Below, one piece after another: positions 86 to 63,294 of a DNA stretch of 64,000 bases (position 1 is its first letter; the number at the start of each line of letters is the position of its first letter). Below the pieces are notes generated by a model. That model was not told the DNA's origin. It saw only the letters and a list, made by a program, of their open reading frames with translations, and ran no database searches. The stretch is from a virus: IMG/VR virus record IMGVR_UViG_3300028610_000246; one strand, 5' to 3'. A program made the position numbers and the translations under genes.

Positions 86-2834
86 TCAGACATCGTGTAT
101 CTCCTCATCGACCAACTTGTCGATCGCTTCTTGAAGCTGTTCGCCAGCTCGAACGGCTAAGCCTAGCTCGAACATAGCCTGAAATCGTTCCCTAGCTGGA
201 AGAGACTCGTCGCGACTACGTCGCGCGAGTTCTTCGAGTTCGGCCTTAATGGCAGAGTCGCCGCTCAGAACGTTCGTCAGCCAGCTCACTTGTGTCTCCT
301 CCGAGGGGTGTAGTAGCGAGATGCGTCTAGAGTCATGAATCTGTCGCTATTAACCTCTTCTGAGATGTCGTCTGGCCGGAGGCTGTGTAGCTCTATGAGC
401 GCGCTCCTTCTGAGGACGGCACGAAGTCCAGTGCTATCCTCCCAAACTCTCTGACCCTTAGGTCCTTTCAGTAGAGTTGTTGTGTACATGGCGTATCTCC
501 TGTAACAGACCGCGTCCTTGCGGTTTCGGCCAGCTAGGCCTCGTCAGTGCTACTTATCGATTGGCCGCCTCAGTTCGACTCTCCCAACCCATGGCTTTGA
601 GGTCTTGTTCTGTGAGCGCGTTTGGTCCAGCAAGATAATGAATTTGATCTATCGGATCAATTTCCCCTCGACACTGCTGGTCAAAATCTATTGAGGTGGT
701 AACACATGTAACGACCGTGTTACAATTGATGCCAAATTCTTCGAACGGGTTGTGATCTTCTTCGGCTAAAATTTGAACCCAGGAATTATCCCTGCGCTCA
801 GCCTCGAGCATTAACTCTAAGGTATTCATGGCGTGTTTCCTTGCGTAGCTTATTTCACTATACCATTATATCATGAAGTAGCAGAAATGTATACAAGTCC
901 TGTTACAAGGGACTAGCCCGGAGAATCATCGTCTCCTGCATCTTGAATTGTGTAGGAAACAGTTCTATCGTCTGAGTCCATAATCTCAATTAAGATCTTA
1001 ACCCCACTATTATTACCTCTAACAGCGTTTTCTATGCGTGACTTAAGATCCATCACAAAGGGCTGTAGAGAATAAGTCTCGTGCGAAACCCCGTCATCAT
1101 TGGTTATTAAGTAGATGTTCATATTTTAGATCTCCATACATAGGCCCAAAGGTCCAACGTACATGCCCAAAGGTCCATTAATTAAATGCACCTCGTAAAC
1201 CCAATTAAGTTTCACTGGGTCTCGATCTCCCATTTCTGGAGTAGGTTAATGAAGTGAATGATCGCCTCCGTACCAGCCTCACTAAGGTCATCGCTGTGCT
1301 CATTTTCTATAGTCTCTAGAAACGTACCTATAGCCAATAGCTCCTCGTCGGTGAATACTTCGCTTACAGTATGTGGGGCTGCAAGGTCCTGGTCTGGAGT
1401 CTGTATGATAAGGTAGTTCACTTGTGATCCCTCCATTGCTCCATAAGATTTGACATCGTATAGATAAGGTCCATCTCTTTCTTAGTCGTATCTTTTTTAA
1501 GAAACACTTTCATAGATTCTAAGAAAGAATGCCAAATCTGAAGTTCTTCGTCAGTGAATATCTGGACGACATTGGGCGGCACCTTCGTCGAAGGTGTCTC
1601 TGAGTTTTGTATAATAAGGTAATTCATGGGTTCATAAAGTCGCCATTTTCTTGCTGCCAGCGCTCCTCGTCGTAGTCTCTTTGAATATCATCGTTGTAGC
1701 CCATGACATCATTATAGGCTGCACCACCCGGGTACATCTCTATATCGGGCTCAGATTCGATGGGTTCATCGGCCTCATAATTAGGATCGTTAAGAACCTC
1801 GGGCCGATATGTCCTCAACTTATCATCCTTACACAGACGGCAGACCAGTGTCAGTGGAATACCTCGAGCGTCGTGCTCCATCCATGTATCTTCGTCTTCG
1901 TGTCTACAGTCACTCATGGCAATTACTCCTTCTTATAATCATGTAGGCAATCATTAGAGCAATCCACACAGACTACGAACGTACCATAATCCGTCTTGAT
2001 AGCGCTTAGATAGCCTATAGAGAATTTTGCGCCGTAGTCATGACCAGGATTTCCGTTGGGAGTCATGGTACGTTGTCCGGAGGTCCCGAATGACTCTGGA
2101 TCGTGAGAGAGGTGCTCACATTCACAGGATCGAGTAATCACTATGTCACCATTTCGTTGAATCGCTTAATAGCTCCTAGCTCACTAGCCCATACTTCAGA
2201 TTCTTCGAAATGAGTTTGACCGGAGGGGCTGACTCTATAGGTCTGAACTCTAGCCTCTACGTGACGTGTAAAAGAGTTAGTAGATGTGATGACTAGAGTA
2301 AGAACGTCATCATTGATGTCAGCACGAATAATGGTGGGAACACTCATGGCAGTACTCCTTATTGATCTAGAAAGAACTCTTCACGAATACGAGCGACGGC
2401 ATCCTCGCCGTTTTGCTCACGTTTAAGATAGTAGGGAATGTTGAACGCCAAGATGATCTTGCGCGCTTGATCCTCAGTCATGTCACCCTCAAAACCTACC
2501 TGTATGGCATTGGACATACACTCTATGGCATTATCCTGTAGACTATAGGAGTCAACGCCGCAGGCCTGAAACTCTAAGTCCTTGACCGTAGCGTCGAGGA
2601 GCTCCACTATTTCAAGTATCTTAGATAGTTCCATTACATCTTCTCATAGCCATAAATGTCCTCGTCTATAGACATTCGCTGTATAGCCTCATTATGAGTA
2701 TTAACTTGTCCCATAGCCTGACCAAATTTATTGAATAGTATCCATACAGGTTCTGGTCGAATATTTGGCATCATACGCCCAGTAAACTCACATTCAGTGA
2801 ACATTGGAAGGATATTTGAAGACTCTTTTTTCAC
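86..2834 (-). CDS. Run of small early hypothetical genes (86-289, 286-489, 554-829, 913-1122, 1212-1421, 1418-1627, 1624-1917, 1923-2141, 2141-2347, 2359-2634, 2634-2834)
   Basis: Tightly packed co-oriented 60-97 aa ORFs with overlapping start/stop codons and GGAG-type RBSs; no recognisable domains. Confidence 0.75.
865..893 (-). promoter_or_regulatory. Sigma70-like promoter TATACA-17-TATAAT
   Basis: Minus strand reads TATACA tttctgctacttcatga TATAAT, upstream of ORF 554-829; one of 11 similar sites. Confidence 0.75.
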
Positions 2835-2840
2835 TATATT

Positions 2841-2869
2841 ATTGTACCAAAGATTAATAGCAATGTATA
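2841..2869 (-). promoter_or_regulatory. Promoter TATACA-17-TACAAT
   Basis: Same architecture, directly upstream of ORF 2634-2834. Confidence 0.75.
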
Positions 2870-2897
2870 CAAGTTCCTAACGGGACTATGATCACTT

Positions 2898-2930
2898 AAA
2901 AATGGGGCCAGTCTTGGTAGGACTGACCCC
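2898..2930 (-). terminator. Intrinsic terminator
   Basis: GGGGTCAGTC-7nt-GACTGGCCCC stem followed by ATTTTT on the minus strand. Confidence 0.7.
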
Positions 2931-3095
2931 TAGTCTTACGGCACTTGAGTTGTTTGCTACGGATGTCAGCTACAGGGGGAGATCGTAGCTTGAGTCCCTG
3001 TTGATCTAATTCTTCAATTTTAGCTCACTTCTTTTGTGCCGACCCGCCATGAGTTCAGCGTCCAAAGGTCCAAGTCAGTTGCCCAAAGGTCCATA

Positions 3096-6000
3096 TCATA
3101 CATCCTTATTTTGTCTATTGATCGTGTTCGACACGAAGTCGTTCAATTGCCAATGGCTTCGGCCATAGTCACCGCAAAAGAAAGACTCGACTATTACATC
3201 TTTCTGCATAATTTTAACTCTATGACGTCTATGTATAGATGCCCACCACTTAGCCTTAATACGTGCGTCTCTTATAAGATTCGTCTCGAATAGATTATCG
3301 GGATGACAACTTATTGTAACTCTATATCTCATGAGTCTTCTCTCAAGTGATCGCCTACGAAGCCACCTTCGAGCTCTGTATCAGTCTTTTGGTACTTTTG
3401 ACACTTTTCACAGTCTCGAGCATGCTCCTCTTTTGGATAGTCTGTTAGACCACGATCCCAAGCTTTTTGGCAGTCGGGGTGTAACTGTGTTGAGGGCTTA
3501 ACGACCTCGTGAAGATGCCATACATATCCATCACAGACCGCCGTGCCGACGTACTCGTACTCATCGGGTATAGCATGACCAGTCCCGAAGATAGAGAATC
3601 GTCTTGGTTCAGATACGTTGACGGCATCTGTATGAAACTTGTACCATATACAGAGAGCGCCAGTGCCATCTTCACAGAATGCGATTACTTTCGATGCATG
3701 AGGAAGCACGTATTCTGATTTATTAGGGAATAGCTTTCGCTTATGTATTTTGTACATATATTACCTCCAATGCTGCACGGGCGTAATCCCCGACTATATA
3801 ACTACCTATTTCAGAGTTGGTCTTCATTAATTCCTTACTGTACTGATATTTCCATGTATTAAGGTCGCTTCGCATCCACTCCAATACCACATAATCATCG
3901 TTGGCATTTGTGAATGGATCTGGCAATTCAATGCATTCAGGATGTTCGACGGGTTTAATGTACGCTTCCCATATTGGTCCGCCCATAGCCTCGGCCAGTA
4001 TAATTCTATCTTGATCGATCTTAGCCATTTACTTTCTCCACAGGCTGTAACTCGATGCCGCCACGATTCTTTATGTTGTGATCTGAACAGGGGAGACACA
4101 TAGCGTATGCTCGACGATCTTTGGAGTGATACACGAATGTATGACTAGGACGAGCACATGCTATAAACATCTTACGACTGAGCATACTAGCCTCTTCACA
4201 AGGTATATGGGTTATATCGAGCATTATGCATGTTCTCCATAAGGTTTTCCTGAATTGTAGTCAACGTAGCCAGCATCACGCCAATCCCTCATAAGGTCGA
4301 GCATGCCTGGCTCTAAGTAGATGATTATTGAAGCGACATTCGCTCGATCGTTTGCTGAGAGTACGATCTGATGACCATCAAATTTACCATATACACCATC
4401 ACCAAAATACATCTCTGTATCCATTTTATTCCTCTTGAGCATTAACCTTCTTTAATGACGGCAGGTATGCCTCATTGAATATGAGTCTTGCTATACCGAT
4501 CATATCACTTTGATGTAACTTACCACTAGCGTCTCGCCAGCTACACTCATTATCTACTGTAACGATGGCGTCGTCATCCGCACTATCGATCACTGCATAC
4601 CATGTATCCTCGTACACATGGATATGCTCGAAGGTGTGCGGTAGGTCCATATTATCGAACCAGCGAACGGCATCATCACCTGTTAAACATTTTGAGTTAA
4701 CGATGAACTCGATAGGCGTCTTAGCAGAGCCCTCATACTTTTCGTCGTATTCATCACGAATTATTTCATTAAGAGCTTTCATAATGGGACGAGTTAAAGC
4801 ACTTAGAGACAATATTTCAATATCATCCGGGCTATTTTCAGGACGATCTTCACCCAAGATGGGCTCCGATATAGAATGAGAGCTTGCTGATAAGATTTGT
4901 TCTCCTACGTCATCAATGTAGGCGCCTATGATTTTAAGATAATTGAGGCGCTCGCTATCGAGATTCATCGAATCGAGATCACGATCGATTAAGAGCTTGA
5001 CAAAATCGGCCTCTTCCTTAGATGTAATCTTATTCATGACGGAATTTCCAAGTGTCTATATGTAACAGGATGGGGGTGGCCCTCTATATTAAATAACGGA
5101 ACTTTGGCTTTAGAGTCAGCGTGGGTATGTACTATACCCGTAATCTTCGCAGGTGTCCATATACCGACTTTATGGCCGATTACTTTGTCACCTATCTTTA
5201 AGGTCCTTGCCTTGCGTCTATCCATACTTAATCACCATCGTGAATGACCTCTTCGATTACGGCGTCATAATCAAAAGTCATATCCCCCATATATGCATTC
5301 TTTATAGTAACAGTCTTAGCAACTGAGTCATTGTCGAATATTTGGCCGTAAAACTTACCAGACATCTCTTCGTCAGTGACCCAATCACGATATAATGCAC
5401 GTAATATAGTGTGTTTTCCGTTAGGAATCATAGCTATTTCATCGTGAGTCATCTAGCACCTCCACTGTAGCGAATCCACCTGATAGATCGATGAATCCAC
5501 TATCACCTACTGGCGGTAGTTCATCGCTAGGATACTTCTTAATAATCTTAGCAGCCTCAGAGGGTATGACTTTAACGTTAAGAAATCCGTTCCAAATAGA
5601 ATCGTCAGTAACACCAATGAACATCTCTGGATCCATAAAGAATTGAAATCTTACGACTCTCATGGCCTAAACAACCACGCCCAACGCTTGTAACACGTAC
5701 TACCGGTAGGCGGAGCATAACCATGATGGAGCAGACTCTCTAACTTATTGCTGCTCGGATTTGGTCGATTTTTGTGTCGACGGATCATTTTACGCAATTT
5801 GCGCTGACCCTTGACATCGTTTTTATGAAGTTCAGGCTGTTTGAAGCGTAATTTCATGCGCCGACTCCTTGCTGCGGAATCTTCTCTAATAATTGTCGCA
5901 TAATCTTGGCCTCGGTTCCCTCTATATCGTCATCAAAATAGAAGGGCTCTAAAAGCCAAAGTACGAACTCGCGTCCGTATGTTTGATAGGGGTCGACTAC

Positions 6001-7888
6001 AAATCGACCACAAGACGACCACCACGGATGATGTATTGCCATGCCTTCATGAGTAAATGTATCAGAGGGCTGGCCGCCCTCTTCCAATATATCACGAGAC
6101 TTACATCCGCGCTGACGTCCCAAATCTTCAACGTGTCTTAACGTATCAGTAACGTTCATGGCGAAATTTCTCCTACTACGACCGAAAGATATTTTCCGAT
6201 CATAGGTATATTATACTGCGAGATAACAGCAATGTATACAAGTTCCTTAACTGGTGATCCATCATATACTATAAGATTTAGAAACAAGACTACGTAGAGC
6301 TATTGCGCCTCCGTGTTGATAGCAATAATTTCTTTCATCAATAATTACTATGGCAGGCCTAGTACACCTATATACTCTACCCTTTATATCTCGCCAATAA
6401 ACAGACTCCCTATTAGACGAGCATCTAGGATAACGATACTTTCTCTTTTTTCGGAATTTTGGATCAATCCATTTAGCTTTCATGTAATCGGTCCGAAATT
6501 CTCACCAATTATGTTGCCATGCTCGTCTTCGACCACAGTAGGTTCGGGCTGATCTGAGAAGTCATGATCGACAATCTTAAGATCGAAGACGTGTGGAAAG
6601 AGATGTCTCTCGAATGTATCACTTCTCTTCTTTACAAATACTCGACCAGAACTTGATGCTTTTTGTGGTCGACGCCAACCCTGTAACACGAACTGTGTTC
6701 CGTCTGGAGCTTTGAGTATGGTGCCGATTACTACCTCAGTACCGTCACTCTTTCGTACTAATCTACCTGCACTCATGACGTTCTCCTTAATTTCTATACA
6801 TTTTGTGATTATATCGTACCCGTTGCCAGATGACAATCCACATAAACGGAATCCAAATGGCTAGGGCGAGTAGACCTATAACAATTAACAAGATGTTCAT
6901 GACAATCTCCCTTAGATATCATGCCACTATTATATACTATCATAGGTTAATAGCAATGTATACTAGATTTTTATATGAGGTACATATCCAACTCGCGTTA
7001 TTTCCACTACATTAAATGCACTAAGTGTATCATTGTATAATTTAACACATAATACTCCATCATCAATAATAACTCTCCATTGTTTTTCATCTATAGGAGC
7101 ATTACCATCGGTAATAGTATACACATCACTAAATAATTCATTCATGTCGGTGATTCACCATCGTTGTGTATAAGATATCGATCTACTGCACTACCCAGAG
7201 TCTTCCTGTGTTTGGCTATATCTGAGTATAGACCGTGCCTGACATGATTAATGTAGTCAATGGCCGATATTACCACCTCTCTCTCAAAATCGTCCATCTG
7301 AGAGCCCGAAGGTCCATCACTCGTATGAAGTGAAACATCCAAAGGTCCAACATCTTTAACCATAACCTTTTCTCGCATCTTCTTCGTTATCAAAAAATTG
7401 ACATAACCAATAATTAGGCGGATCACTATCTAGATTGATACATTGCTTACTATACTCATCAGTAAGTGTATCTCTATACTGACGAACAGCATCCCGAAGG
7501 TCCACAGCGCTGTATTCACCACAAAACATAGCTTTTGCACGATTACCTGTTGCATGATAACCTTCTACCCATAACGTAATTCTCATAGCTCCAACTTTAT
7601 AAGCCTCTGTATATTACGTAGAATATTTCGTAATCGACCTATCTCTTGCTCATACTCTAAACAAATGGTTAATATCGCATTATGATCTGCTATATATGGG
7701 CCGACAGTTCCAGTGAGTTCGCTCTGTATAGATCTAGCCTTTATACCGTATTTATTAGCTATTTCTTCTGCATATGAAGTGTTATGACATAACATAGTTG
7801 CATTAATTTTTTTACAGACCTCAGCTAGATTGTGTGTTTTGCCGCACCCATACGGGCCTATAACAAACACATCCGAATACCTATTCAT
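3096..7888 (-). CDS. Second run of small early hypothetical genes (about 18 ORFs; 7583-7888 has a P-loop-like GPYGCGKT)
   Basis: Co-oriented abutting ORFs from the ORF track; 3329-3757 resembles a common small phage protein family (IFGTGH motif). Confidence 0.7.
6210..6238 (-). promoter_or_regulatory. Promoter TATACA-17-TATAAT
   Basis: Exact 17-nt spacer, in the gap upstream of ORF 5854-6159. Confidence 0.75.
6934..6962 (-). promoter_or_regulatory. Promoter TATACA-17-TAGTAT
   Basis: In the gap upstream of ORF 6480-6836. Confidence 0.6.
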
Positions 7889-8048: not shown

Positions 8049-8053
8049 AGTAT

Positions 8054-8733: not shown

Positions 8734-10122
8734 TCGCAGTTGATATGACTTATTTTCATATGTTCCTTAGCACTATCGATAAACCTCTGAAAATGCTCGA
8801 AGACTTGACTTGGGTCATCTAAGCGTACACTAGCTTGAAACCATGGATACGGATGACGACTATAAAATCGTATATACCACTTACCACCATGTCTATGTCT
8901 ATGTCTAACCGGTCGACACATGAAGAATAGCGATTTCTTCACAGCATTCTCAAATTAAAATACATTAGAACTGTAGCACTAACTGATAGACCCATCACTA
9001 ATCCTATAAAGTAGCCGGTCCAGAACAGTATTCCAGACGCCTCTTGAGAAAACCTTTTAATTACAGAGATCAAGCTTTTTATGGCGGAGTTCATGATATT
9101 CCTTGAAAAACTGTATATCTTTAGAGCAATTACCACCTTGGCCTAAACATTCGGCATAAGGTTCCATCTTTTCTATTACTGCTTTACAGGTCGTAGGCAA
9201 TAAATCATGTTGTAATCCCACAGTTATACCCAATATGAAGCATAAAATACACATAGATATGACTGCAGTATGAATTTTCCAATTATTCATTTATCCCAAC
9301 CCATTTGCTTACTAAGTACGGGACTCCAACCGCCTATTTCATCAAATCGCTCCAGCAATCGCTCTTGTATCTTTAGCTGCGCTTGTAGAAGGTCCTCAAA
9401 ATCTGGTTTACCGACAGCATCACGACCCGCTGAACCGAGAAATCTGTACCAATGAGCGAGCTGCCTATGACTTGCAGCTTCTACTTCTCTCATAGTCGAA
9501 TAGCTCATTGAAGAACTTCACCTGTTTCTACGTCCGTAACCTCTATCGGAGGCGCATTACGACGAACGACTCTAATAGCCTTGAATATGACAATTTGACA
9601 GTCGTCCTTTTCTACACAATATATGGCTTTATCAGTAGCCTCATCTTCAGAGGAGTAGAACTTCTGATTTCGAGTTCCAACTACTTTACCATTTACTACA
9701 TTGAGACTGTGAATTTTGTATAGATTCTTCAGTTCTAAATCACTCATTTCATCTTCCTCGTATATTATCGGGATATCCCCTCTACATACATCATAACGAG
9801 CGGGTTCACCCTTTTTATTACAATAGCCAGTGACACTTCCACCACTACTCGGTATCAACTCGAATACATTTTTTGGGCGGGTTATAGTATCTTTACTATA
9901 TACTCTTCGATAATGATCTTCGGCACAAGCAGACCCCATACTCCAGACCCAATCAATTCCCTGACCATTTGGATCCCATGGAGCGTGCTTTTGAGCCATA
10001 TGTCTATACCAATCGGCTCTGTCTATTCTAGACAACATCAGATGGGTATTAGACACTCTGCGATAGCCCCAATTAATGAGTTTATTGGCCTCTCTTTCTA
10101 CAGATGTTTGCTGATTCGTCAT
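8706..10122 (-). CDS. Small hypothetical genes (8706-8942, 8939-9136 membrane, 9057-9290 membrane, 9287-9508, 9505-10122)
   Basis: Abutting co-oriented ORFs. Confidence 0.65.
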
Positions 10123-10541: not shown

Positions 10542-10547
10542 AGGTAT

Positions 10548-11486: not shown

Positions 11487-11514
11487 CTGGTTCCTACAGG
11501 GAAAATTATTGGAT

Positions 11515-12084
11515 TTAAATCTGAAGGTATTCATAACCATAATCATATGCCACCTCAAAAAACTTATCAGAATCTATCGTCGATATAAATGGCGGCGAAC
11601 CTTTAATGCGCTTATTTAAATGAGGTAATCGACCAAATCTATCCGTATGTACGACTGGGAAGCCTTTTCGATTTTTGTATACTGAAGTCCACCACTGAAT
11701 AGCGGCTCCGACAAAATCTCCATCTTTCAAAAGGTCCATCCATAAACCAAATTCCGCAAGGTCCAAGATGTGTTTGTAAGTGAAACTACTTCTATCTACG
11801 TTCTTTAGTAATTCTGTAAGAGATATAACAGTCTTTATAGGATCACGAACAACTACTATGGTGAGATTGAATTTAGCATTAAGATTGTACGCATGTCGCC
11901 ACTCTACAGTACCATCTTTACCCGACTGTTCATGGCCAATATCTAGACCCTGATCTCTATAGTAAGTAGCTACAGACTTTGTTCCACTACGTGGACACCC
12001 AGTAAATAGGAGTGTACCAGTTTCTTGAGGTGGATAAGGCTCGTTCTCCATACCGTATCTATCCTGTTGGGGGCTTATGTTCAT
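11515..12084 (-). CDS. Sulfotransferase-family protein
   Basis: FTGCPRSGTK (5'-PSB loop) and VVVRDPIKTVIS (3'-PB motif). Confidence 0.65.
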   Translation of the reverse strand: MNISPQQDRYGMENEPYPPQETGTLLFTGCPRSGTKSVATYYRDQGLDIGHEQSGKDGTVEWRHAYNLNAKFNLTIVVVRDPIKTVISLTELLKNVDRSSFTYKHILDLAEFGLWMDLLKDGDFVGAAIQWWTSVYKNRKGFPVVHTDRFGRLPHLNKRIKGSPPFISTIDSDKFFEVAYDYGYEYLQI

Positions 12085-13974: not shown

Positions 13975-14376
13975 CTATAGAGCTAAGTCAAAACCATTGA
14001 TACCTTTAAATCGTAGTCTACCTGATACGAATGTTATGTCGTAATTAATCTTGTCGAACAGGTCATTCCATATAGGCTGCTCGTCTTCTTTTACATATAT
14101 TGTATTATCGGAGTGGTCGATTATGAATTGGCATAGACCCTTAGCCGTAATATAGTCTATATATCGAACTTCGTTGGGCAGCCTTGAGCAGTCGTGATCT
14201 TCGACGTGAATCAAAAAACCTTTACCTTCTGTAGTTGGAACTATCTGAAGGTCCAAAAGGTCCTCTTTAATTGGGTTTATGTTTCGAACGTAAAAAAATC
14301 CGAGAGGTCTTTTCTCACCGTTTAACCTAAGATAGGTTGCAACTCGGAAGAAACTGGCGGTTCTATATGCGCCCAT
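13975..14376 (-). CDS. Hypothetical protein
   Basis: First ORF of the leftward block, behind the promoter at 14386-14414. Confidence 0.6.
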   Translation of the reverse strand: MGAYRTASFFRVATYLRLNGEKRPLGFFYVRNINPIKEDLLDLQIVPTTEGKGFLIHVEDHDCSRLPNEVRYIDYITAKGLCQFIIDHSDNTIYVKEDEQPIWNDLFDKINYDITFVSGRLRFKGINGFDLAL

Positions 14377-16863: not shown

Positions 16864-17666
16864 GGCCTATAAAGACAAAGGAAATGAAACATGTATTACT
16901 GGCTGCACCTGGAGATGAGCACCGTGTTCAAGCACTGCCCATCAAAAGGTCCAATAACGGTGTATCTTCGTGTTGGAAAATGTCGTTTAAAGAGAGGGTA
17001 ATAGCTCTATTTACGGGTAAAATTTGGTTTGAATGTTTGGGTAAAACTCACCCACCCATTAAATTACGAGTATAAAGAAACTTTCCTGTAGGATTCAGTG
17101 TACTTATAGACTAACTTACGGTATAATAGTATGATGGATAAAACTGTACTTGCGAGCATCAGGCAAGATTCGTTGTCTAAGCACGCCGGAGCTATCAAGA
17201 AATATGGAGATAAACATTTAGATAGCTGTATACAGATCGTTATCAATAGACCCATAGACAGTAGACAAGTTAAGGTGGTATTTGAGGAGGGTGACGGATT
17301 TGGGCACGGTGTTAACGTGCCGCCAGACTGGCTAACAGAAGACCATATTCCTAAAGACAGAGTACCATGTCCTAGATGCGGTGGTGCCGGCAAACTAATA
17401 TTAAATGGTGTTGATTGTACAGAATGTAGAGGTACTGGTAAAATAGTTAAAGAATCTACAGAAAAGGTAATTTTACAGTGACACACTTAAAAGAAATTAA
17501 GTCCGAAGTAGACGAAATAGAGACATTTCTATTAGAAGCACTTAATGGCTTTCAAGAGCGCCATTCCAACTTACAAATAAATGGTGTAACTGTAGATCAC
17601 GTACAAGAATTTGGTTGTGAACGACAAGAAATCTTTATGGTAAAACTCGATATATCATTGATATGA
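16860..17666 (+). CDS. Three small genes (16860-17075, 17131-17481 with CxxCxGxG Zn finger, 17478-17666)
   Basis: CPRCGGAGK...CTECRGTGK DnaJ-type repeats. Confidence 0.65.
17099..17127 (+). promoter_or_regulatory. Promoter TGTACT-17-TATAAT
   Basis: Ends 3 nt before the ATG at 17131, so possibly a leaderless transcript. Confidence 0.6.
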
Positions 17667-52081: not shown

Positions 52082-52798
52082 CAGTATTCTTTACCTTGGG
52101 ATGCTTCTTAGATCTTATAGCCAGATACTCATTATCCATTTCTGTCAATAAATGCATAAATAAATCTTGATCATCTGTAGGATTTCTATTTAAATACGCA
52201 TCTATATCTGAAATTGATATGGGATTTTCAGACGAGAATCCAGCAGTTCGTCTAGCAGACAAAAAATAAAACGCTTCTACATACTCTAATACATAAAACG
52301 GTATTTCAGGCTTACTATCTAGTGCAGGTGGATCTATACCTTTAGATACTAAACTCTCTAAGAACTCTTCTCTTTCACCGTATCGGATGTTCCATCCGAC
52401 GATGTCTTTACAGACTTTCCCAGGTCGTCCTTAACCTCTTCTATATAGTTTTGAAGGTCCGTAGAATAATCAGTAACAAAATCACGTAACTCACTATTTC
52501 CCTTCAATGCCGCAAATGCCATATCATGGCTATATTCGATAGAATTACCATCGTTACCCACAACGTCAGACCAATCCAAAAGAAGCGTTTTTGACATCGC
52601 TCTAGCCATGATGTCAAGTTGCGTTTCTGGATCGAGCCTATTCTTAAGAATATCCTTACGATGCGGCTGTTGTAACCTAGACCACATCTTTTGAAACTTG
52701 ATACTCCCACTACTGGCAATAAGAAATCTACTGCCCTTAAAATCAGTCCATGTACCCTCATCTTCAGTGTCTTGCGTTCTTTTCTCTATATTAAACAT
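52071..52798 (-). CDS. Tail assembly chaperone pair (G and frameshifted G-T)
   Basis: ORF 52358-52798; the -1 frame is open from the slippery site to 52071. Confidence 0.8.
52415..52421 (-). other. -1 ribosomal frameshift site G GGA AAG
   Basis: Same heptamer as lambda G-T, in the correct phase. Confidence 0.8.
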
Positions 52799-54532: not shown

Positions 54533-54914
54533 CTGCTTGTACCGACCTAGTCAGCATCAAATGAGGCCGAATAGTAGTAGATCCAAATTCAACGATAGAC
54601 GCATAGTCCTTGCCATTAGCTATAAAATATTTAGCTTGACTAAGTATCGTCGGTTTAAGTGTTGGGGGTGACGGTTTCGGTAGAGCTCCAGACGTATCGC
54701 TAGCAGCGCTACCAGCCTCTCCGACAGTAGTAAAATCTGGTCTACCTGCCGATAAGGTCCAAGAAGCTCGTAATTCACCTGAGGCTACAGGCGTTCTATC
54801 AACCGCGCCTTTCCATACGGTTAAAGCTATGTTGATAGTACGCTGCGACGCTGCCCTCCTTAATTTAGGAATGAACGATCGTGTAGGTTTTGGTGTTGCC
54901 CAAGTAATATTCAT
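54522..54914 (-). CDS. Neck protein (HK97 gp10-like)
   Basis: TPVASGELRASW...N..YA..VEFG. Confidence 0.8.
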   Translation of the reverse strand: MNITWATPKPTRSFIPKLRRAASQRTINIALTVWKGAVDRTPVASGELRASWTLSAGRPDFTTVGEAGSAASDTSGALPKPSPPTLKPTILSQAKYFIANGKDYASIVEFGSTTIRPHLMLTRSVQAVDV

Positions 54915-55281: not shown

Positions 55282-55797
55282 CTACCTCGATAATGCAACT
55301 GACTTAATAAAATCTTTCGTAGTAAATCTAGCACCTAAGTACGATATCATAGACCATATTTTATCAGGTACTAGCTGGCTACTCTGAAATTCATTAAAGT
55401 CTATAGATAAGCTACCGACTTTAATTGCGTCTAGAGAATTGCTGTCACTGGGTTCACCATTATCTACAACAAATAAAGCTAATTCACATTGAGCATTCTT
55501 GAGATCTTGTGGTATCGCAACCCCTAGAACCAATATATCTTCAGGTGTATCCAGAGTAAAATCAAATACACGAGGCCACGCTAGTGCTTGTGGTGTAGTC
55601 TGATCCTTAATATCTCCAATCCAAGTAACTCGTGAATCTAAAAATGTAACGGCTGTACGAAGTAATTTCTCTCTATCAGCATCAGAAGCATTTACATATC
55701 CACTAGCACCAAACCTTCCTTCGAAATATATCAGCGCATCTGCCGCAGTTATATACGAATTAGCAGAAGGTCCACCTACTGTAGCATCTATAGTCAC
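55282..55797 (-). CDS. Head-tail adaptor (DnaT-like domain)
   Basis: GGPSANSYIT...QALAWPR...IPQDLKNAQCELA. Confidence 0.75.
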   Translation of the reverse strand: MTIDATVGGPSANSYITAADALIYFEGRFGASGYVNASDADREKLLRTAVTFLDSRVTWIGDIKDQTTPQALAWPRVFDFTLDTPEDILVLGVAIPQDLKNAQCELALFVVDNGEPSDSNSLDAIKVGSLSIDFNEFQSSQLVPDKIWSMISYLGARFTTKDFIKSVALSR

Positions 55798-58112: not shown

Positions 58113-59564
58113 TTATTCTTCCTCACTTCCGTTAGTAGTTTCATCATCATTATTATTTTCGTCAGTCGAACCTGGGATTGATATATCCACAGTTCTATCC
58201 AACGTATTCGTCTGCATTATATCACCTCGTTGGAGGTTAAATATCAATGTCTCTTCATTAATTGCGCCCTCTGTAAACGCCTTAACAATTTCTCTGAGCT
58301 CAGAAGCCGGCATTCTTGGATCTAAGAAATGCTTATTAAGAGTAATTTTAACCGCTTCTCCGGATATACCCTCCATCTCTTTAATCATATTATAATGACG
58401 ATTAAGAGCATTCTCTATAGTAAACGCTATACGAGTCATATTGGCCGCATCAGAAGAATGCCTAATTCGCACGTTATCTGGCGACTCACTTCCTTTAGTA
58501 CTTGTATCCATAAGACGTGTACTAAAAATAGCCATTTGATCTGATTTTTCTTTTAACGCTGTTTCAAGACTTTGTAGACCTTGACCTGTAAACTCTAGAT
58601 ACATAGCCTTAGCTTGATGTGGAGGTAGTATCCATGCCTGCTCAGAACCTACTCTAAGAGGCTCAGTAGCATCAACACCACTAACTACAGGTACAGGTAG
58701 TGCAGTAAAGTGTCGACCATGTTCTAAATCAGCACTAGTTCTATAATGCGATAAATTAACGTCTACAATGTCTAACATGGGTGGCTTGACTAAATCAGTC
58801 TTAATTCCTTCAGGCGTAATAAATGTAAATGGAATAATATCTAGCGGTTCACCACGTACCGTAGGTTGAATAATGGCTCTTCTAGTCAATGAACCTAATA
58901 CTCTATCTACCGTAGATCGTCTCCAAATTTCACCAGCGTACTGGCCGGTAGTCTGATCGACCCTTAGAAGTCTAAATTCATTAAATCGACTTATAAAATG
59001 AATTGTATTAGGATGTGGCCAGAACTTGATTTCTTGAAGAACCAACATCTCTAAGGTCCTTAACTCAGGATCTGTATTCCAATTAAGTATATTTTCAGCA
59101 CTATACGGAACTGTATACGCTCGACCTCCTTCTATTGGAAAATCAATGAGTAAACCTACTCGACCCATAAGCCAGATTTCTTTGATTATGAATCTATACA
59201 ACTCATTAAAAGACGTGCCCTGATTATCTGTATCTTCAAAATATGGCTTCATTTCGTCAGGGGCTTCGATCGTAGGCTCTCTTTCTGTCATTAAACCTAC
59301 TAAACCTGTTAAAGTGCGATCAGCCATAGATACGAATAATGCTCGCTTCAAATATGCATTATATTCGGCCGTATCTTGACCGGTAAGCTTAGGTAAATAC
59401 TCCGTGCGTCTTGCTTTTACTTCATCACTGCCCTCAATACAGTCGCGACTTCTACGCCATTTCTTATTAAATTTATCATAATCTGGATGCTTAAGAGTTG
59501 TCTCCTGTATGATCTGTGATCCAGGAGTACCAGTAGCCAATACGTCTCGTGGGTTGGCAGCCAT
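58113..59564 (-). CDS. Portal protein (DUF4055-like)
   Basis: HPDY...YLP...Y..YLKRA, NLSHYR.SAD; follows terL. Confidence 0.85.
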   Translation of the reverse strand: MAANPRDVLATGTPGSQIIQETTLKHPDYDKFNKKWRRSRDCIEGSDEVKARRTEYLPKLTGQDTAEYNAYLKRALFVSMADRTLTGLVGLMTEREPTIEAPDEMKPYFEDTDNQGTSFNELYRFIIKEIWLMGRVGLLIDFPIEGGRAYTVPYSAENILNWNTDPELRTLEMLVLQEIKFWPHPNTIHFISRFNEFRLLRVDQTTGQYAGEIWRRSTVDRVLGSLTRRAIIQPTVRGEPLDIIPFTFITPEGIKTDLVKPPMLDIVDVNLSHYRTSADLEHGRHFTALPVPVVSGVDATEPLRVGSEQAWILPPHQAKAMYLEFTGQGLQSLETALKEKSDQMAIFSTRLMDTSTKGSESPDNVRIRHSSDAANMTRIAFTIENALNRHYNMIKEMEGISGEAVKITLNKHFLDPRMPASELREIVKAFTEGAINEETLIFNLQRGDIMQTNTLDRTVDISIPGSTDENNNDDETTNGSEEE

Positions 59565-59565: not shown

Positions 59566-60978
59566 TTATAATCCTATTATCTTCCTGAGTTGAACAGTCT
59601 GACTCAACTGTAGAACCTTATATCTAAGAACGTCCATGAGATGATCTTCTAACTTAGTATCTATATCTTCAACCTTCTTATCATCTCGCTGCATCTGAGG
59701 TAAAGTCCTTATCAAGTTAGGACATTCAGTAGTAATATATAGATGTTTCTCTTCTTTATTACCGTCTATAGATGCTCTCAGCATCTGTCTGATAAATTGC
59801 CACCCAGTCGCTCTAGATCCTGGCGATTTATCAGACTTAGTAAATAGTATTCCTCCAGCCATGAACTGATCATGTATGCTGTCCGAAGATTGATCCGTTG
59901 TCCATATAGACGCGTCTGCGGGTCCTGGTCTAACTTCTCTATTGGGAAACTGCTCTTTTTCAAATACCTTCATTCTATACGCTTGTTTATCTGGCGTAAG
60001 CTTCAATCCTTCACGTTTTTCATTGGCAAAATATAGTTCTCCAATAACGAAAAGAGAGCCGCGGGGGACGACCCTCTTCTCATCACTTGCATCTGTGAAC
60101 TCTTCACCGTTTGACTCAGCGAAATATAGATTTCCGCCAGGGGCACTCGAGCCCCAGTCATGTGCTCGAGTAATTTTCCACTGCTTGGGAACGAGAAATG
60201 GACGAATCACTTGGATGTCAGGACGCCAAACGTCACTGAACATACCTTTCATCATAATATCCCAGTCACCAGATAACATCGCATCCACTAGTACTGAGTC
60301 ACCCAAACCCCTCAATCTATCTGCATAACCTGGGTCACTACGCGTCAATGTGAAATTATCAGCCAGTTTAGCTGGAACATACATTCTACTCATTCCACCA
60401 TCGCTCGCTGGAGCTTGCCATAACTTGTTTCCGTGATCAACGAATTGAGTCTTAAAATAATCGTGTCCAATGCCACCTGGGTTGCTGCAGTACAGAATAC
60501 GAGGAAACATTCCTTTATACTCGCCTGGAACCTCCAGACCGCCAAGTCTAACCCTAGACCTGATAAAACGTACCATTGCTTCTGAAAAGTGGGTCGCCTC
60601 ATCAATTCCTAAAAATCCAATCTGTGCACCTTGATGTGTCGTTATATCCGTTTCCCACTGAGAATGAGCTAGTTGGATTATTGACCCATTTTCAAATTCG
60701 AACAGGTAATTGGACTTATCCCACCGGACCTTATTGGCCCTAATAAAATCCCTAAGCATTTCCGGATACCCACCCGGCGTATGAATATGATTACTGACTA
60801 ACTCCTTAAACGTCCGTCGAAAAATATACGTAATCAGGCCTGGAACCCAAATACTGTATATAATGGAAGCCGCCCTTAAAAGATGCGACTTCCCCCCACC
60901 AGCTGCGCCTCCGTACAAAACTTCATTAGCCTGAGACAGTAAGGCTTCTTTCTGCTTAGGCCAAAGTCTTAACTCCAT
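59566..60978 (-). CDS. terL: Terminase large subunit
   Basis: YGGAAGGGKS, IDEATHF, NPGG.GH, DWG, DHLMD..RY. Confidence 0.92.
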   Translation of the reverse strand: MELRLWPKQKEALLSQANEVLYGGAAGGGKSHLLRAASIIYSIWVPGLITYIFRRTFKELVSNHIHTPGGYPEMLRDFIRANKVRWDKSNYLFEFENGSIIQLAHSQWETDITTHQGAQIGFLGIDEATHFSEAMVRFIRSRVRLGGLEVPGEYKGMFPRILYCSNPGGIGHDYFKTQFVDHGNKLWQAPASDGGMSRMYVPAKLADNFTLTRSDPGYADRLRGLGDSVLVDAMLSGDWDIMMKGMFSDVWRPDIQVIRPFLVPKQWKITRAHDWGSSAPGGNLYFAESNGEEFTDASDEKRVVPRGSLFVIGELYFANEKREGLKLTPDKQAYRMKVFEKEQFPNREVRPGPADASIWTTDQSSDSIHDQFMAGGILFTKSDKSPGSRATGWQFIRQMLRASIDGNKEEKHLYITTECPNLIRTLPQMQRDDKKVEDIDTKLEDHLMDVLRYKVLQLSQTVQLRKIIGL

Positions 60979-61382
60979 TATACATTAGTCCAATTTTGAC
61001 CATGTTTAATGGCCCAAATTGTTTGGGGACTTACATTTAGATCTTCTGCAATAAGTCTATGTATTCTAGAGTCTTTACGAATTTTCAGTATGTCCACCGG
61101 ACTTAACCTGGCTTTTCTTCCATTTTGACTATTGATTTGATTATTAACAAAACGACAATTATCTGGAGAATAGTCACCTTCATTATCGCGCCTATCTAAC
61201 TGTAAACCTTGTATATATCCGTTATTTATACACCACTTTTCGAATACGTTAAAATCGTTCCATTCTGTACAAATTTTTATTCCTCGATCCAAATAAATAC
61301 TTTTAGTCTTAGCATCCTTACCACGAACTCTATGACGCATACATTTCCATAATTTATAAATCGGATTATCACATCTATTCAT
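60978..61382 (-). CDS. HNH-type endonuclease with C-terminal HTH
   Basis: LDRRDNEGDYSPDNCRF...N..N. Confidence 0.8.
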   Translation of the reverse strand: MNRCDNPIYKLWKCMRHRVRGKDAKTKSIYLDRGIKICTEWNDFNVFEKWCINNGYIQGLQLDRRDNEGDYSPDNCRFVNNQINSQNGRKARLSPVDILKIRKDSRIHRLIAEDLNVSPQTIWAIKHGQNWTNV

Positions 61383-62529: not shown

Positions 62530-62538
62530 TACCGTCTC

Positions 62539-62889
62539 CTATGCAACGTTTACGTTGAGTTCATCTTTGTGTTCAACCTCTTCAAACTGCCCGTCTAATA
62601 TCTCATCAACCGGCAGTCTATCGGATTCTTTATGTTCAAGTGTAGGCACAACCGCATCCTCAAATACGACAAGTAGTTTATTTGCATCATCGGGTGCCAT
62701 GGATATTTCAGTAGATTTGAGCTCTGGTTCTACGTATCTAGACAGTGCTTTATGACAGTCAAACTTTAATCTCTCATCTTGAGTACTGTGAGCTATATCG
62801 GCAATACCTATCAATGGATGATACCCTGAATGCTGTTCTTGAAGAAGTAATAAGATACGTTCTCCCTGCTTTAAGTCACGAGTTATCAT
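62539..62889 (-). CDS. Putative terminase small subunit
   Basis: Helical N-terminus, Y..P.LKS.E motif, behind a promoter upstream of terL. Confidence 0.55.
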   Translation of the reverse strand: MITRDLKQGERILLLLQEQHSGYHPLIGIADIAHSTQDERLKFDCHKALSRYVEPELKSTEISMAPDDANKLLVVFEDAVVPTLEHKESDRLPVDEILDGQFEEVEHKDELNVNVA

Positions 62890-62909
62890 TCAAAGTCCTC
62901 CATTAAAAC

Positions 62910-62938
62910 ATTATACTGCAAGGAGTCCCATATGTAAA
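62910..62938 (-). promoter_or_regulatory. Promoter TTTACA-17-TATAAT
   Basis: Upstream of 62889. Confidence 0.75.
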
Positions 62939-62970
62939 CAACTTCTTTAAAGGATCCACATTATATTGAT

Positions 62971-63294
62971 CTAAGGTCCAGTAGGTCCCTTCAAATTCTT
63001 CACTATATACTCAGATTCTGCGTGAGCTTCTCCGGGCAGAGTATCATCTACACGTACACCAAATATATGAATTTCTTCAGTTCTAGACTCATCCTCTATA
63101 GTATTATTTGAGCCAGGAATGGTGACACTCATAGTACTAGCAGGACTAGCTAATAAGGTCCAGGGCACTATTTCTATATCATTAGTAATATCATCTAAAC
63201 GCCAATGAACCGTATTAGGAATCAGTGGAGCACCTAACTCATCTGTAAATACCATAATCATGATTACAGGGCTCTTCTCATTTACTGTTAACAT
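62971..63294 (-). CDS. Hypothetical beta-rich protein
   Basis: ORF track. Confidence 0.6.
   Translation of the reverse strand: MLTVNEKSPVIMIMVFTDELGAPLIPNTVHWRLDDITNDIEIVPWTLLASPASTMSVTIPGSNNTIEDESRTEEIHIFGVRVDDTLPGEAHAESEYIVKNLKGPTGP

Follow-up and report, generated by a model that had tools for sequence, protein, structure and literature searches.

AAGGTCC, a positively selected and strand-polarised DNA signal in an uncultivated Xp15-like phage and its relatives

Background

Phages enriched in host Chi words offer one precedent for a short sequence kept on a single strand: the strand ratio is 20:3 in LLS, with one copy per 1.86 kb, and 32:0 in MD8, while P1 carries one per 1.9 kb, and in these phages the words lie on the terminase-coding strand, are concentrated towards the right end, come and go in evolution, and are sparse in recently acquired DNA (PMC12315714). 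Programmed nicks furnish a second precedent, since in phage tf 14 of 14 copies of TACTRTGMC lie on one strand and all are nicked, despite the presence of two convergent gene blocks, and LUZ24, PaP3 and T5 have one-strand sites too (PMC3517423). The present analysis concerns the heptamer AAGGTCC in a 64,000-nt stretch of DNA (hereafter the window) from an uncultivated subsurface phage, a virulent-type Xp15-like siphovirus.

Strand polarity of AAGGTCC in the window

An exact search of the window returned 44 matches to AAGGTCC, namely 43 on the + strand (one per ~1.5 kb) and a single one on the - strand, at 60726, with a chance expectation of ~2.7 per strand. A first-pass annotation of the same DNA had put this bias at ~41:1; it is real and stronger than stated, the 41 + sites then listed being all correct and two more (23178 and 49957) having been missed. 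Its further statement that GGACCTT occurs only at 60726 is confirmed by the exact search. The sites, together with the large terminase and HNH endonuclease genes, are as follows:

1149..1176 (+), intergenic doublet, GCCCAAAGGTCCA twice, 21 bp apart; exact search
1383..1389 (+), site in minus-strand early ORF, reads Asp-Leu; exact search
1466..1472 (+), site in minus-strand early ORF; exact search
3065..3092 (+), intergenic doublet, (T/C)CCAAAGGTCCA twice, 21 bp apart; exact search
5200..5206 (+), single site, early ORF; exact search
7309..7348 (+), doublet 33 bp apart in ORF 7142-7426, CCR prefix on both
7497..7503 (+), intergenic site with CCCG prefix; exact search
9389..9395 (+), single site, early ORF; exact search
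11731..11764 (+), doublet 27 bp apart in ORF 11515-12084; exact search
14248..14263 (+), doublet 9 bp apart in the first early gene (13975-14376), both positions shared with the MAG phage
16946..16952 (+), site in plus-strand ORF, AGG-TCC codons; exact search
18680..18729 (+), doublet 43 bp apart in the family A DNA polymerase gene, 18723 kept in the MAG phage
20210..20216 (+), site in the PD-(D/E)XK exonuclease gene; exact search
22158..22261 (+), two sites 97 bp apart in ORF 22019-22486, CCR prefix on both
23178..23184 (+), site in the SNF2 helicase gene; exact search
26278..26570 (+), three sites in the carbamoyltransferase gene, 26278 kept in the MAG phage
27555..27561 (+), site in the MazG-like gene; exact search
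28464..28470 (+), site in the thymidylate-synthase-like gene, kept in the MAG phage
30992..30998 (+), site in the ATP-dependent DNA ligase gene; exact search
34493..34499 (+), site in the minus-strand ORF opening the late block; exact search
35501..35507 (+), site in ORF 35057-35623; exact search
36431..36437 (+), site in ORF 36140-36994; exact search
41060..44295 (+), three sites (41060, 41579, 44289) in the gene for a 3470-aa tail protein, the lowest-density stretch
49957..50012 (+), doublet 49 bp apart in the tape-measure-like gene, 49957 kept in G001
50396..50402 (+), site in the tape-measure-like gene; exact search
52454..52460 (+), site in ORF 52358-52798; exact search
54754..54760 (+), site in ORF 54522-54914; exact search
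55767..55773 (+), site in ORF 55282-55797; exact search
59053..59059 (+), site in the portal gene; exact search
62973..63161 (+), two sites in ORF 62971-63294, upstream of the terminase region; exact search
60726..60732 (-), sole reverse-oriented copy, in the large terminase gene; exact search
59566..60978 (-), large terminase gene, the orientation landmark
60978..61382 (-), HNH endonuclease gene, an insertion in this phage only

Dinucleotide shuffles of the window gave a mean of 5.4 and a largest value of 12 copies with both strands summed. Under codon-preserving shuffling (n=1000), in which synonymous codons were permuted within each gene and the 5 intergenic sites were held fixed, the + strand averaged 9.7 copies (sd 2.0, maximum 18) versus 43 observed, and the - strand 1.4 versus 1. 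The + orientation is therefore ~8-fold enriched in coding DNA, and relative to the same shuffles the - orientation is not depleted. The heptamer is the top strand-asymmetric 7-mer of the window (z 6.3) and is polar in each gene orientation taken alone (minus genes 30:1, plus genes 13:0); no other 7-mer of the window is polar in both orientations separately. The minus-gene blocks 1-14450 and 33901-64000 hold 15 + sites each and the plus-gene block 14451-33900 holds 13, so that the earlier count of 15 for the first minus block stands while those for the second minus block and the plus block rise from 14 to 15 and from 12 to 13. Both the enrichment and the strict polarity hold irrespective of gene direction, as had been claimed.

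The sites occupy every frame in genes of either orientation and encode many differing peptides, and 38 of the 43 are genic with the other five being intergenic. Codon choice at the motif reverses with gene orientation: Arg-Ser is written AGGTCC in 6 of 23 instances in + genes versus none of 42 in - genes, and Asp-Leu is written GACCTT in 17 of 90 instances in - genes versus 2 of 29 in + genes. Selection on AAGGTCC acts at the DNA level, and the earlier contention that the bias is not protein-, codon- or transcription-driven is upheld by the shuffles, the use of all frames, and a codon choice that follows the gene strand. A by-product of protein, codon usage, a dispersed repeat or faulty assembly has in its favour the predominance of genic sites and nothing further. 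This reading is already refuted and retains next to no probability, given that codon-preserving shuffles fail to reproduce the count, that the sites share neither frame nor peptide and have unrelated flanks beyond ~10 nt, and that the same bias recurs in independent assemblies from several studies.

One-letter variants of the heptamer show no strand skew (57 on + versus 56 on -), and the core must therefore be exact. Around it, the informative positions are A at -9, C at -4/-3, a purine at -1 and A/T at +7, with C at +7 absent from all window sites; these preferences recur across three independent genome sets and define a fuller form, A-N4-CC-N-R-AAGGTCC-W. Inter-site spacing is random plus clumps (CV 0.95, largest gap 5.7 kb), and close doublets are in 5-fold excess (7 vs 1.4 by chance, P = 0.0003). 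Counted from site positions, 27 sites fall in 1-30 kb vs 16 in 30-64 kb. The GC skew of the window tracks transcription only, a replication component being absent.

The sole reverse copy corresponds to nucleotides 247-253 of the large terminase gene and falls in Lys-Val-Arg codons. It is kept at the identical place in the relatives G001 and G002 and in the MAG phage (two contigs of a metagenome-assembled genome), and has been lost in three other relatives via a synonymous AAG to AAA change; hence the reverse orientation is tolerated, not purged. This bears on the evasion of restriction. Type III enzymes need two inversely oriented sites, and the EcoP15I sites of T7 are one-oriented. An asymmetric word used strictly in one orientation could similarly make the present genome uncuttable by a Type III-like enzyme; however, evasion would account only for the loss of one orientation, and here the other has risen 8- to 16-fold. 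The reverse orientation matches expectation (1 vs 1.4), with its copy kept in four relatives, and the arrays described below are left unexplained. We accord this reading very little probability.

Polarity and positional turnover among relatives

The polarity is maintained in relatives at 70-74% nucleotide identity, a test that the first-pass annotation had itself set for its proposal of a genome-polarised signal, and on this point the proposal holds. The MAG phage shows 61:1 over ~70 kb at 49% GC, its contigs bearing 45 and 16 sites versus codon-preserving shuffle means of 11.2 and 3.9, and further relatives give strand counts of 25:2, 16:0, 14:0 and 6:0, with the motif being retained in phages spanning 40 to 52% GC. 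Across the whole clade, in every relative, it is the terminase-coding strand that carries 5'-GGACCTT-3'. The polar bias is absent in Xp15, Acinetobacter phage HHU4 and one close relative, and no polar 7-mer was found in Xp15 or HHU4.

Site positions are mostly not conserved between relatives: in the replication block 5 of 9 aligned sites are shared, and in the structural block 0-1 of 4-6. Polarity is thus conserved while positions turn over. Density varies ~4-fold between close relatives, and within the MAG phage, as counted from positions, it amounts to 1.24 sites per kb in the early, 0.77 in the replication and 0.59 in the structural block. A 78-kb relative has 3 sites in 19 kb, and only one in the ~15 kb upstream of its terminase gene, where three large genes are read as a ~12 kb insertion. 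On the whole, AAGGTCC is a DNA signal under positive selection in which orientation counts, and its one-strand polarity shows that the genome is read in one direction by something.

Arrays and the array-module gene

Relatives of the phage carry tight non-coding arrays of CCGAAGGTCC (10-14 copies, period 9-17 bp) located 2-6 kb upstream of the terminase gene and adjoining the 3' end of the early block, a region that lies just outside this window. Non-coding AAGGTCC arrays were not found in IMG/VR outside this clade. Site density declines away from the array in two genomes, the window and the MAG phage. In 6 of 6 relatives sequenced there, the CCGAAGGTCC arrays stand on either side of an additional paralogue of the gene for an 85-aa protein with a coiled coil and a helix-turn-helix; G002, Xp15 and HHU4, which are without motif and arrays, possess a single copy of this gene, and in distant relatives arrays of other short words adjoin their single copy. 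Across 44 homologues, both paralogues included, the predicted recognition helix does not vary, and the array words differ by lineage with no co-variation with the helix residues. This combination suggests that the 85-aa protein more likely binds a conserved 18-mer, TTATGTCAAGTCGGTAAG, than AAGGTCC. A fold search with the protein recovered generic HTH and sigma-region-4-like matches only, none of them significant.

The arrays raise the prospect of a new kind of phage reader, which we consider unlikely: a protein, either that of the array module or the product of a clade-specific ORF, would nucleate or enter at the arrays, and the polar copies would guide or shield a process that runs in one direction, for instance packaging, ejection, or a polar block to nucleases or forks. 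Such a phage-borne direction-marking system, neither host Chi nor nick site, with a reader that loads at the CCGAAGGTCC arrays, is a minority possibility, in which the polar copies would let this reader tell its own DNA and its direction from other DNA. The consistent association of the arrays with the extra HTH paralogue, the single-copy state in the motif-free phages, and the presence of other-word arrays beside the single gene in distant relatives argue for it, as do the resemblance of the array-gene-array layout to iteron-flanked plasmid rep genes, the retention of the motif from 40 to 52% GC with non-coding arrays confined to the clade, and the doublets, which fit a dimeric binder. Against it, the recognition helix is invariant though the array words vary, the fold search gave no significant match, operators are usually degenerate whereas only exact AAGGTCC is enriched, and double-strand binding alone gives no reason for a genome-wide polarity. 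If true, it would represent a phage-owned counterpart of Chi/RecBCD or KOPS/FtsK that might, for example, keep a helicase-nuclease of phage or host off the phage DNA, or give packaging or ejection its direction.

Candidate functions of the polar heptamer

By analogy with described phages, nicking and Chi-like control of recombination or nucleases appear to be the two best-precedented readings, and to this extent the list of functions proposed in the earlier annotation survives; T7-type priming drops out of it. Site-specific modification offers no reason for polarity.

Tentatively, and with real doubt, we favour the view that the word acts like Chi in LLS and MD8, controlling a helicase-nuclease that would come in from the end carrying the array. 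An enzyme of the RecBCD/AddAB kind, belonging to the host or, less likely, to the phage, would enter the linear phage DNA at the end beside the early genes and would meet every GGACCTT copy from its 3' side, first crossing the tight array of 10-14 copies and then approximately one copy per 1.5 kb. On recognising each copy, the enzyme would cease to degrade and would instead promote recombination or repair; the incoming genome and the tails of replicating concatemers would in this way escape destruction and be recombined. On this reading we infer that the physical genome end would separate the array from the terminase genes, that entry into the cell would begin with the array end, that the reader would be a helicase-nuclease, and that a host would use the same word as its Chi.

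Several features are consistent with this Chi-like reading. The exact core fits lock-type recognition and not a loose operator, and the flanking positions that carry information are 3' of GGACCTT, where a helicase-nuclease would arrive. The excess of close doublets fits a signal that is read at less than full efficiency, and a tolerated reverse copy is as for Chi. Positional turnover with number and strand kept and density variable among relatives, and the density gradient away from the array, also count in its favour, although the gradient could come simply from looser protein constraint on the small early genes. The same holds for the gene content, as neither a strand-annealing protein nor a Gam-type inhibitor was recognised among the ORFs scanned, many of which are without assigned function. 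On the opposite side, genes for a PD-(D/E)XK exonuclease and a VRR-NUC nuclease are present, and the arrays always flank an extra small DNA-binding gene, which hints at a phage-encoded reader. Furthermore, a pyrimidine of the phage DNA is probably replaced by a hypermodified base, and this might stop a host enzyme from reading the word as its own Chi. AAGGTCC is also not over-represented in the sole bacterial genome bin containing a relative, an Acidimicrobiia MAG, nor in 60 genomes of its class, which counts against the Chi-like reading; however, this bin is probably not the true host and the binning wrong, because both a PagL-like gene and the closest phages in culture indicate Pseudomonadota.

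A somewhat less probable explanation, to be held as doubtful, is that of programmed nicks, whereby a late phage nickase would cut the + strand at or beside AAGGTCC and the phage ligase would seal it early in the next infection, the packaged DNA bearing 40-60 one-strand nicks as in tf, T5 and the phiKMV group. The tf precedent of one-strand nicked sites despite convergent gene blocks supports this, and an exact word with a ~17-nt flank resembles a nuclease site. The phage has an ATP-dependent ligase of its own, its clade-specific conserved ORFs (including 13975-14376, 17131-17481 and 21048-21350) could hide a nickase, hypermodified DNA would be no obstacle to a phage enzyme, and the dispensability of the T5 nicks fits the variable site density. 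Nevertheless, no nickase was recognised among the phage ORFs; the HNH nuclease (60978..61382) is ruled out as the motif reader, there being motif-bearing relatives without an HNH gene, and the VRR-NUC nuclease, exonuclease and ligase are all shared with motif-free Xp15 or HHU4. The 43-61 sites are several times the number in any nicked phage, nicks at the 9-17 nt spacing of the arrays would release short oligonucleotides and leave gaps, and site positions are largely conserved in the LUZ24 group whereas most here are not.

Decidedly unlikely is a role in priming or replisome loading, in which the PrimPol-helicase (14656-16863) would start lagging-strand primers or reload at AAGGTCC on one template strand in the course of one-directional (rolling-circle) replication starting at the array. 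The ~1.5 kb spacing is the size of an Okazaki fragment, a polarity that does not switch across ~70 kb agrees with replication in one direction, the arrays might be an origin, and AEP-type primases from plasmids and phages can need specific template words. Primase words are short: T7 gp4 reads 5'-(G/T)(G/T)GTC-3' and pRN1 ORF904 reads GTG, and a 7-17 nt site far exceeds known primase sites. The first-pass analogy with the GTC sites of T7 primase fails, as this phage has a PrimPol-helicase of the AEP type (archaeo-eukaryotic primase superfamily), and Xp15 and HHU4 encode homologous PrimPol-helicases yet have no polar word. The ~4-fold density difference between close relatives is hard to reconcile with an essential priming signal. 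The irregular spacing, the sparse sites of the 78-kb relative and a GC skew without a replication component also speak against priming.

Comparison with known polar signals

In the KOPS/FtsK system, as among architecture imparting sequences, a short word encodes direction, and KOPS flip at the origin and at dif in a two-armed chromosome. AAGGTCC is similar in being a short word whose orientation encodes direction along a whole replicon, and differs in keeping a single orientation over the entire genome; no FtsK-like translocase was found in the phage. Iteron arrays flank plasmid rep genes, such as P1 repA with incC/incA and F repE, and the arrays of the relatives are comparable in forming direct repeats on either side of a small DNA-binding protein gene within a control region. 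Unlike in iteron systems, the protein is only ~85 aa in length with a helix invariant across differing array words, and the word is scattered in polar fashion genome-wide. Primase sites, which are read on single-stranded DNA, share with AAGGTCC the property of a template-strand-specific word, and GGTC is contained within it; the differences from T7 sites are the AEP-type rather than DnaG-type enzyme, the much longer word, and the relatives that have a homologous primase without the word.

The nicked phages of the tf/LUZ24 group, T5/BF23 and the phiKMV-like phages (Glukhov et al. 2012, PMC3517423) are alike in having a consensus on one strand across opposed gene blocks, an exact core with tolerated variants, an encoded ligase, and a dispensable feature whose site number differs between relatives. 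In contrast to their 4-14 sites of 9-20 nt, there are 43-61 sites of 7 (to 17) nt here, and where they are without arrays and keep their positions largely conserved, the relatives of the present phage carry arrays.

As for the Chi-enriched phages, GGACCTT matches none of the known Chi words, which are G-rich as it is not, and the non-coding arrays, with their 9-17 bp period, are far tighter than the kilobase-scale clustering of LLS and MD8. Chi-rich lambdoid phages are typically without a recombination module, whereas this phage has its own replication and nuclease genes and DNA that is probably hypermodified. With LLS, MD8 and P1 (Zheng et al. 2025, PMC12315714), it shares an exact 7-8-nt word occurring once per ~1.5-1.9 kb; with LLS and MD8, the placement of nearly all copies in one orientation on the terminase-coding strand regardless of gene direction; and with Chi-enriched phages in general, a word that is among the most frequent or most skewed, turns over in position, is sparse in DNA read as recently acquired, and is probably concentrated towards one end.

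A strand-polarised heptamer under selection at the DNA level

An exact search of the window recovered AAGGTCC at 43 positions on the plus strand and at one on the minus strand. The 41 plus-strand positions listed in the first-pass annotation were all correct, with only 23178 and 49957 overlooked, and its count of about one minus-strand copy agrees with ours. Dinucleotide shuffles gave 5.4 copies with both strands summed, and 12 at the highest. ORF calling gave 104 ORFs that span 93% of the window; in 1000 rounds of shuffling synonymous codons gene by gene, the plus strand carried on average 9.7 copies (5 of these in untouched intergenic DNA), with a maximum of 18, and the minus strand 1.4. Thus, the plus orientation is strongly enriched and the minus orientation is at expectation, and the excess is driven neither by protein sequence, as had been proposed, nor by codon usage. 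Avoidance of Type III restriction fails as an explanation of the polarity for the same reason, namely that the forward orientation is enriched and the reverse one shows no depletion.

AAGGTCC ranks first among the 7-mers of the window in strand asymmetry, and it alone is polar both in minus-strand genes (30:1) and in plus-strand genes (13:0) taken separately, which upholds the claimed independence from gene direction. It also occurs in all three frames, as the first-pass annotation had stated, in both gene orientations, and encodes diverse peptides. Codon choice varies with gene strand: Arg-Ser is written as AGGTCC at 6 of 23 occurrences in plus-strand genes and at none of 42 in minus-strand genes, while Asp-Leu is written as GACCTT at 17 of 90 in minus-strand genes and at 2 of 29 in plus-strand genes. 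Hence selection acts on the DNA itself. For a strand-specific word to be blind to gene direction, its reader must either act on single-stranded DNA or travel one way along the whole genome. Two other words, AGACCC (20:2, plus versus minus) and ACCACCA (17:0), may be further strand-biased words or coding-strand effects.

The enrichment is limited to the exact heptamer, its one-letter variants summing to 57 on the plus and 56 on the minus strand. The flanks show preferences for A at -9, C at -4 and -3, a purine at -1, and A or T at +7, which recur in three independent genome sets (the window, the MAG phage and the other relatives). The longer form CCRAAGGTCC is found at all five intergenic copies and at six coding copies. 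Gaps between sites are random overall (CV 0.95), with an excess of close pairs (7 gaps below 50 bp versus 1.4 expected, P = 0.0003). We rejected a -35-like promoter element, as no -10 element accompanies the dispersed sites at a constant spacing.

Genomic setting

The window, derived from a subsurface metagenome, comprises most of a siphovirus-type genome organized in three gene blocks.

Gene blocks and selected features of the window
1-14.4 kb, minus strand: small early genes
Plus strand: replication and nucleotide-modification block
Minus strand: structural block, extending to the portal and large terminase genes
25814-29658: overlapping carbamoyltransferase, MazG-like, kinase-like, thymidylate-synthase-like and dCMP deaminase genes
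31801-33675: PagL-like lipid A deacylase gene, then overlapping AdoMet-decarboxylase-like and DUF3326 genes
37369-47781, minus strand: single 3470-aa ORF in the tail region
60978-61382, minus strand: free-standing HNH endonuclease gene

The replication block encodes an AEP PrimPol-helicase, a family A polymerase, a PD-(D/E)XK exonuclease, a VRR-NUC protein, an SNF2 helicase and an ATP-dependent ligase, besides the carbamoyltransferase, MazG-like, thymidylate-synthase-like, dCMP deaminase, PagL-like, AdoMet-decarboxylase-like and DUF3326 proteins. The closest cultured phages, namely the Acinetobacter phages HHU4 and Effie and the Xanthomonas phage Xp15, share its gene order and about 51-54% terminase identity; a search of cultured phages for near-identical DNA found none. 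The cassette at 25814-29658, common to Xp15 and HHU4, suggests a hypermodified pyrimidine in the phage DNA. AAGGTCC is sparse in the PagL-containing stretch, which may be a recent acquisition, and occurs only 3 times in the 10.4 kb of the 3470-aa ORF. The HNH gene directly upstream abuts the start of the large terminase gene and has no counterpart in any of the relatives, and thus looks like a recent homing-type insertion. Being private to this phage, the HNH endonuclease is ruled out as the nickase or reader of AAGGTCC.

Polarity and turnover in relatives

In every relative listed below, as in the window, AAGGTCC lies on the strand opposite to the terminase coding strand. The MAG phage is a relative split over two contigs (C86 and C79) of one metagenomic bin.

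AAGGTCC counts (forward:reverse) in relatives, oriented by the terminase gene
G001, IMG/VR contig, 33 kb, terminase identity 84%: 25:2
G003, relative, 8.9 kb: 6:0
L012, small metagenome contig: 2:0
L013, small metagenome contig: 3:0
L015, small metagenome contig: 14:0
C86, MAG phage, 49.3 kb (49,340 bp), terminase identity 79%: 45:1
C79, MAG phage, 20.9 kb (20,922 bp): 16:0
L218/L219, JGI contigs, 27 kb and 23 kb: 16:0
L220, JGI contig, 20.7 kb: 11:2
L217 (Ga0452205_000573), 78-kb JGI contig, 20.6 kb read, terminase identity 83%: 17:0

C86 and C79 sum to about 70 kb (49% GC), nearly a whole phage genome with all three blocks, and their joint counts (61:1) far exceed codon-preserving shuffles. 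The polarity on whose presence in close relatives the first-pass annotation had staked its reading is therefore there (61:1, 25:2 and 17:0, for example), and its proposal of a genome-polarised signal holds for both gene orientations and across relatives. No word polar in both gene orientations was found in Xp15 or HHU4, and the close relative G002 (13.7 kb, terminase identity 80%) has AAGGTCC at 3:2, without bias, and also lacks the arrays described below. The feature is thus that of one clade inside the Xp15-like family; the terminase-portal tree fits either loss of the signal in G002 or branching of G002 before its origin. CTGGCG (9:0 in G002), considered as a Pseudomonas-type Chi, is uninformative because all G002 genes run in one direction. 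GCTCCAG, in the same one-way gene set (L004, the G002 locus, 136-13382), stands at 8:0 in favor of the terminase strand, at intervals of about 1.7 kb and in all frames, with borderline significance, and may be a different polar word.

At 70-74% nucleotide identity, 0-1 of 4-6 aligned sites are homologous in the structural genes, whereas the replication block keeps 5 of 9, among them the doublet at 14248/14257. Site number and strand are maintained while positions drift. The lone reverse copy coincides with Lys-Val-Arg codons of the terminase gene (nucleotide 247); four phages have it at this position, three lack it owing to a synonymous change, and the reverse orientation is tolerated.

Of the sites in the window, 27 fall within 1-30 kb and 16 within 30-64 kb, and the MAG phage has 1.24, 0.77 and 0.59 sites per kb in its early, replication and structural blocks. 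Dispersed sites are thus commonest beside the array and fewer with distance, each contrast reaching only about P = 0.04 and being confounded by weaker constraint in the small early genes. The window and the MAG phage have one site per about 1.4-1.5 kb overall, and G001 has one per 2.7 kb; the 78-kb phage has just 3 dispersed sites in 19 kb, with a single site in the 15 kb upstream of its terminase gene, a stretch that includes three large genes. We read these genes (464, 431 and 653 aa proteins; L217 2800-16500, between the control region and the terminase gene) as a probable insertion of about 12 kb. That AAGGTCC is a priming site of the PrimPol-helicase encoded at 14656-16863 in the replication block is improbable, given this variable, irregular density and the presence of a homologous primase in motif-free relatives.

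Arrays upstream of the terminase gene

Exact-protein look-ups aimed past the window ends returned no record on the high-coordinate side and, on the low-coordinate side, a JGI contig that stops within the window near position 2526; tight arrays of the word were therefore studied in the relatives only. They occupy a GC-rich, non-coding region that separates the 3' end of the early block from the first terminase-side genes, 2-6 kb upstream of the terminase gene, and contain 10-14 copies of CCGAAGGTCC per array region, often 9-17 bp apart and all in the genome-wide orientation. The arrays sit on both sides of an 83-90-aa gene on the AAGGTCC strand. Interleaved with the array copies is a conserved 18-mer, TTATGTCAAGTCGGTAAG (TTATGTAAAGTCGAAC in G002), which has TTGACA on its other strand and occurs in as many as nine copies within the control region.

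18-mer control regions and paired genes for the array protein (see below)
L015, small metagenome contig: control region 770-1040; paralogues 362-610 and 1431-1763
L003, relative locus: control region 3860-3900; paralogues 3239-3487 and 4543-4725
L139, relative locus: control region 9980-10580; paralogues 10042-10302 and 11030-11278
L004, G002: control region 2590-3100

Some 18-mer copies form TTGACA-N16/17-GATAAT, which we read as a putative good sigma-70 promoter directed towards the terminase side. GAGTCGG, tried as an alternative array word of G002, is merely the inverted partner of the 18-mer. A search of the window for a homologue of the array gene or for the 18-mer found neither; synteny with the MAG phage would place the window's own array region just past 64000, next to coordinate 1 in a circular map. 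The arrays do not fit a hairpin-plus-motif, as they fold no better than shuffled sequence (z -0.41). Matches in IMG/VR to arrays of the word in unrelated phages were almost all collagen-like coding repeats with spacings in multiples of 3, the remainder being the known relative G001 and one two-site chance match.

One-strand words are known as nick sites: in phage tf, all 14 of 14 sites lie on one strand and are nicked, with convergent gene blocks (PMC3517423). That AAGGTCC sites are likewise nicked on one strand agrees with the exact word and its long flank, the encoded ligase and the dispensability of the feature; site number, tight arrays and turnover fit this reading less well, and we consider it possible rather than probable, slightly behind the Chi-like reading below.

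The array protein

The AlphaFold model of the array protein (pLDDT 91) shows a coiled coil that leads into a three-helix HTH. A fold search retrieved generic HTH matches (sigma region 4 and LuxR-type domains), none significant. Its family comprises more than 260 metagenomic proteins, without Pfam or PHROG assignment, that share the invariant signature RDRGPKS...LGLSYGQxYSxRxGYTF, and among cultured phages is limited to Xp15 and the Acinetobacter phages. In motif-bearing phages the gene is present as two paralogues, of which one lies within the array, while G002, Xp15 and HHU4 have a single copy. That the extra paralogue tracks the motif suggests a phage-encoded reader; however, the predicted recognition helix is identical in 44 homologues, both paralogues included, whereas each lineage has its own array word (AGGCAC in HHU4; in Xp15, a period of ATGATAT). 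A phage-encoded reader of a new kind, for which the clade-specific ORFs 13975-14376, 17131-17481 and 21048-21350 are further candidates, is in our view rather unlikely. The invariance of this helix suggests that the protein binds the 18-mer rather than AAGGTCC, the 18-mer probably being the target of the family-wide 85-aa HTH protein. In HHU4 (L001 1315-1407 and 4989-5081), the AGGCAC(C/T) arrays have a 14-bp period and opposite orientations, flank the HTH-gene region, and are not dispersed over the genome.

A possible Chi-like signal

Weighed against these alternatives, we tentatively favor AAGGTCC as a Chi-like signal, a reading that we consider possible rather than probable. A packaging cut site between the array and the terminase genes is the usual arrangement, and such a cut would place the array at the last-packaged, first-injected end. 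A RecBCD-type enzyme entering there would meet every GGACCTT from its 3' side, and the array first. Several features would agree with this Chi-like reading: the site statistics and their geometry, the density gradient, the tolerance of reverse copies, the strict core with context on its 3' side, and the close pairs. Counting against it, no excess of the word was found in the Acidimicrobiia bin (JASJBC01) or in 60 genomes of its class; one Acidimicrobiia genome seemed to show 100:0 polarity, which was produced by the listing order. The Acidimicrobiia binning of the MAG phage is itself probably wrong, as both PagL and the closest cultured phages indicate Pseudomonadota. Also against a Chi-like signal are the probable hypermodification of the phage DNA and the nucleases that the phage itself encodes. 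A literature search for the word in connection with RecBCD or phages returned nothing relevant. All further readings together have a small residual probability.

Implications and comparison with known systems

The polarity is genuine and its statistical support overwhelming, and it is conserved in one clade of uncultivated phages that several studies have sampled. Words confined to one strand regardless of gene direction are direct evidence of one-way genome reading, and to our knowledge the understood phage examples are very few, namely nick sites and the Chi-rich phages (2025); as far as we know, the function of nick sites is still not known 60 years after T5. The present clade is a very clean case, with polarity up to 61:1, an extended consensus, natural variation in density, and tight arrays that mark a likely entry point. 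If the word is Chi, it would disclose the Chi used by an uncultivated subsurface host, and it would make polar words a means of linking phages with hosts; if it marks nicks, programmed nicking would extend to a new phage family at unprecedented density; and if its reader is phage-encoded, it would represent a new kind of self-marking.

AAGGTCC thus joins a small class of genome-polarised phage words, to which the word itself, the phage family and the accompanying tight arrays are new. In the Chi-rich phages LLS (20:3, one per 1.86 kb) and MD8 (32:0), Chi clusters at the right end, shows turnover and is rare in recently gained segments (PMC12315714); it lies on the terminase-coding strand, as does 5'-GGACCTT-3' here.
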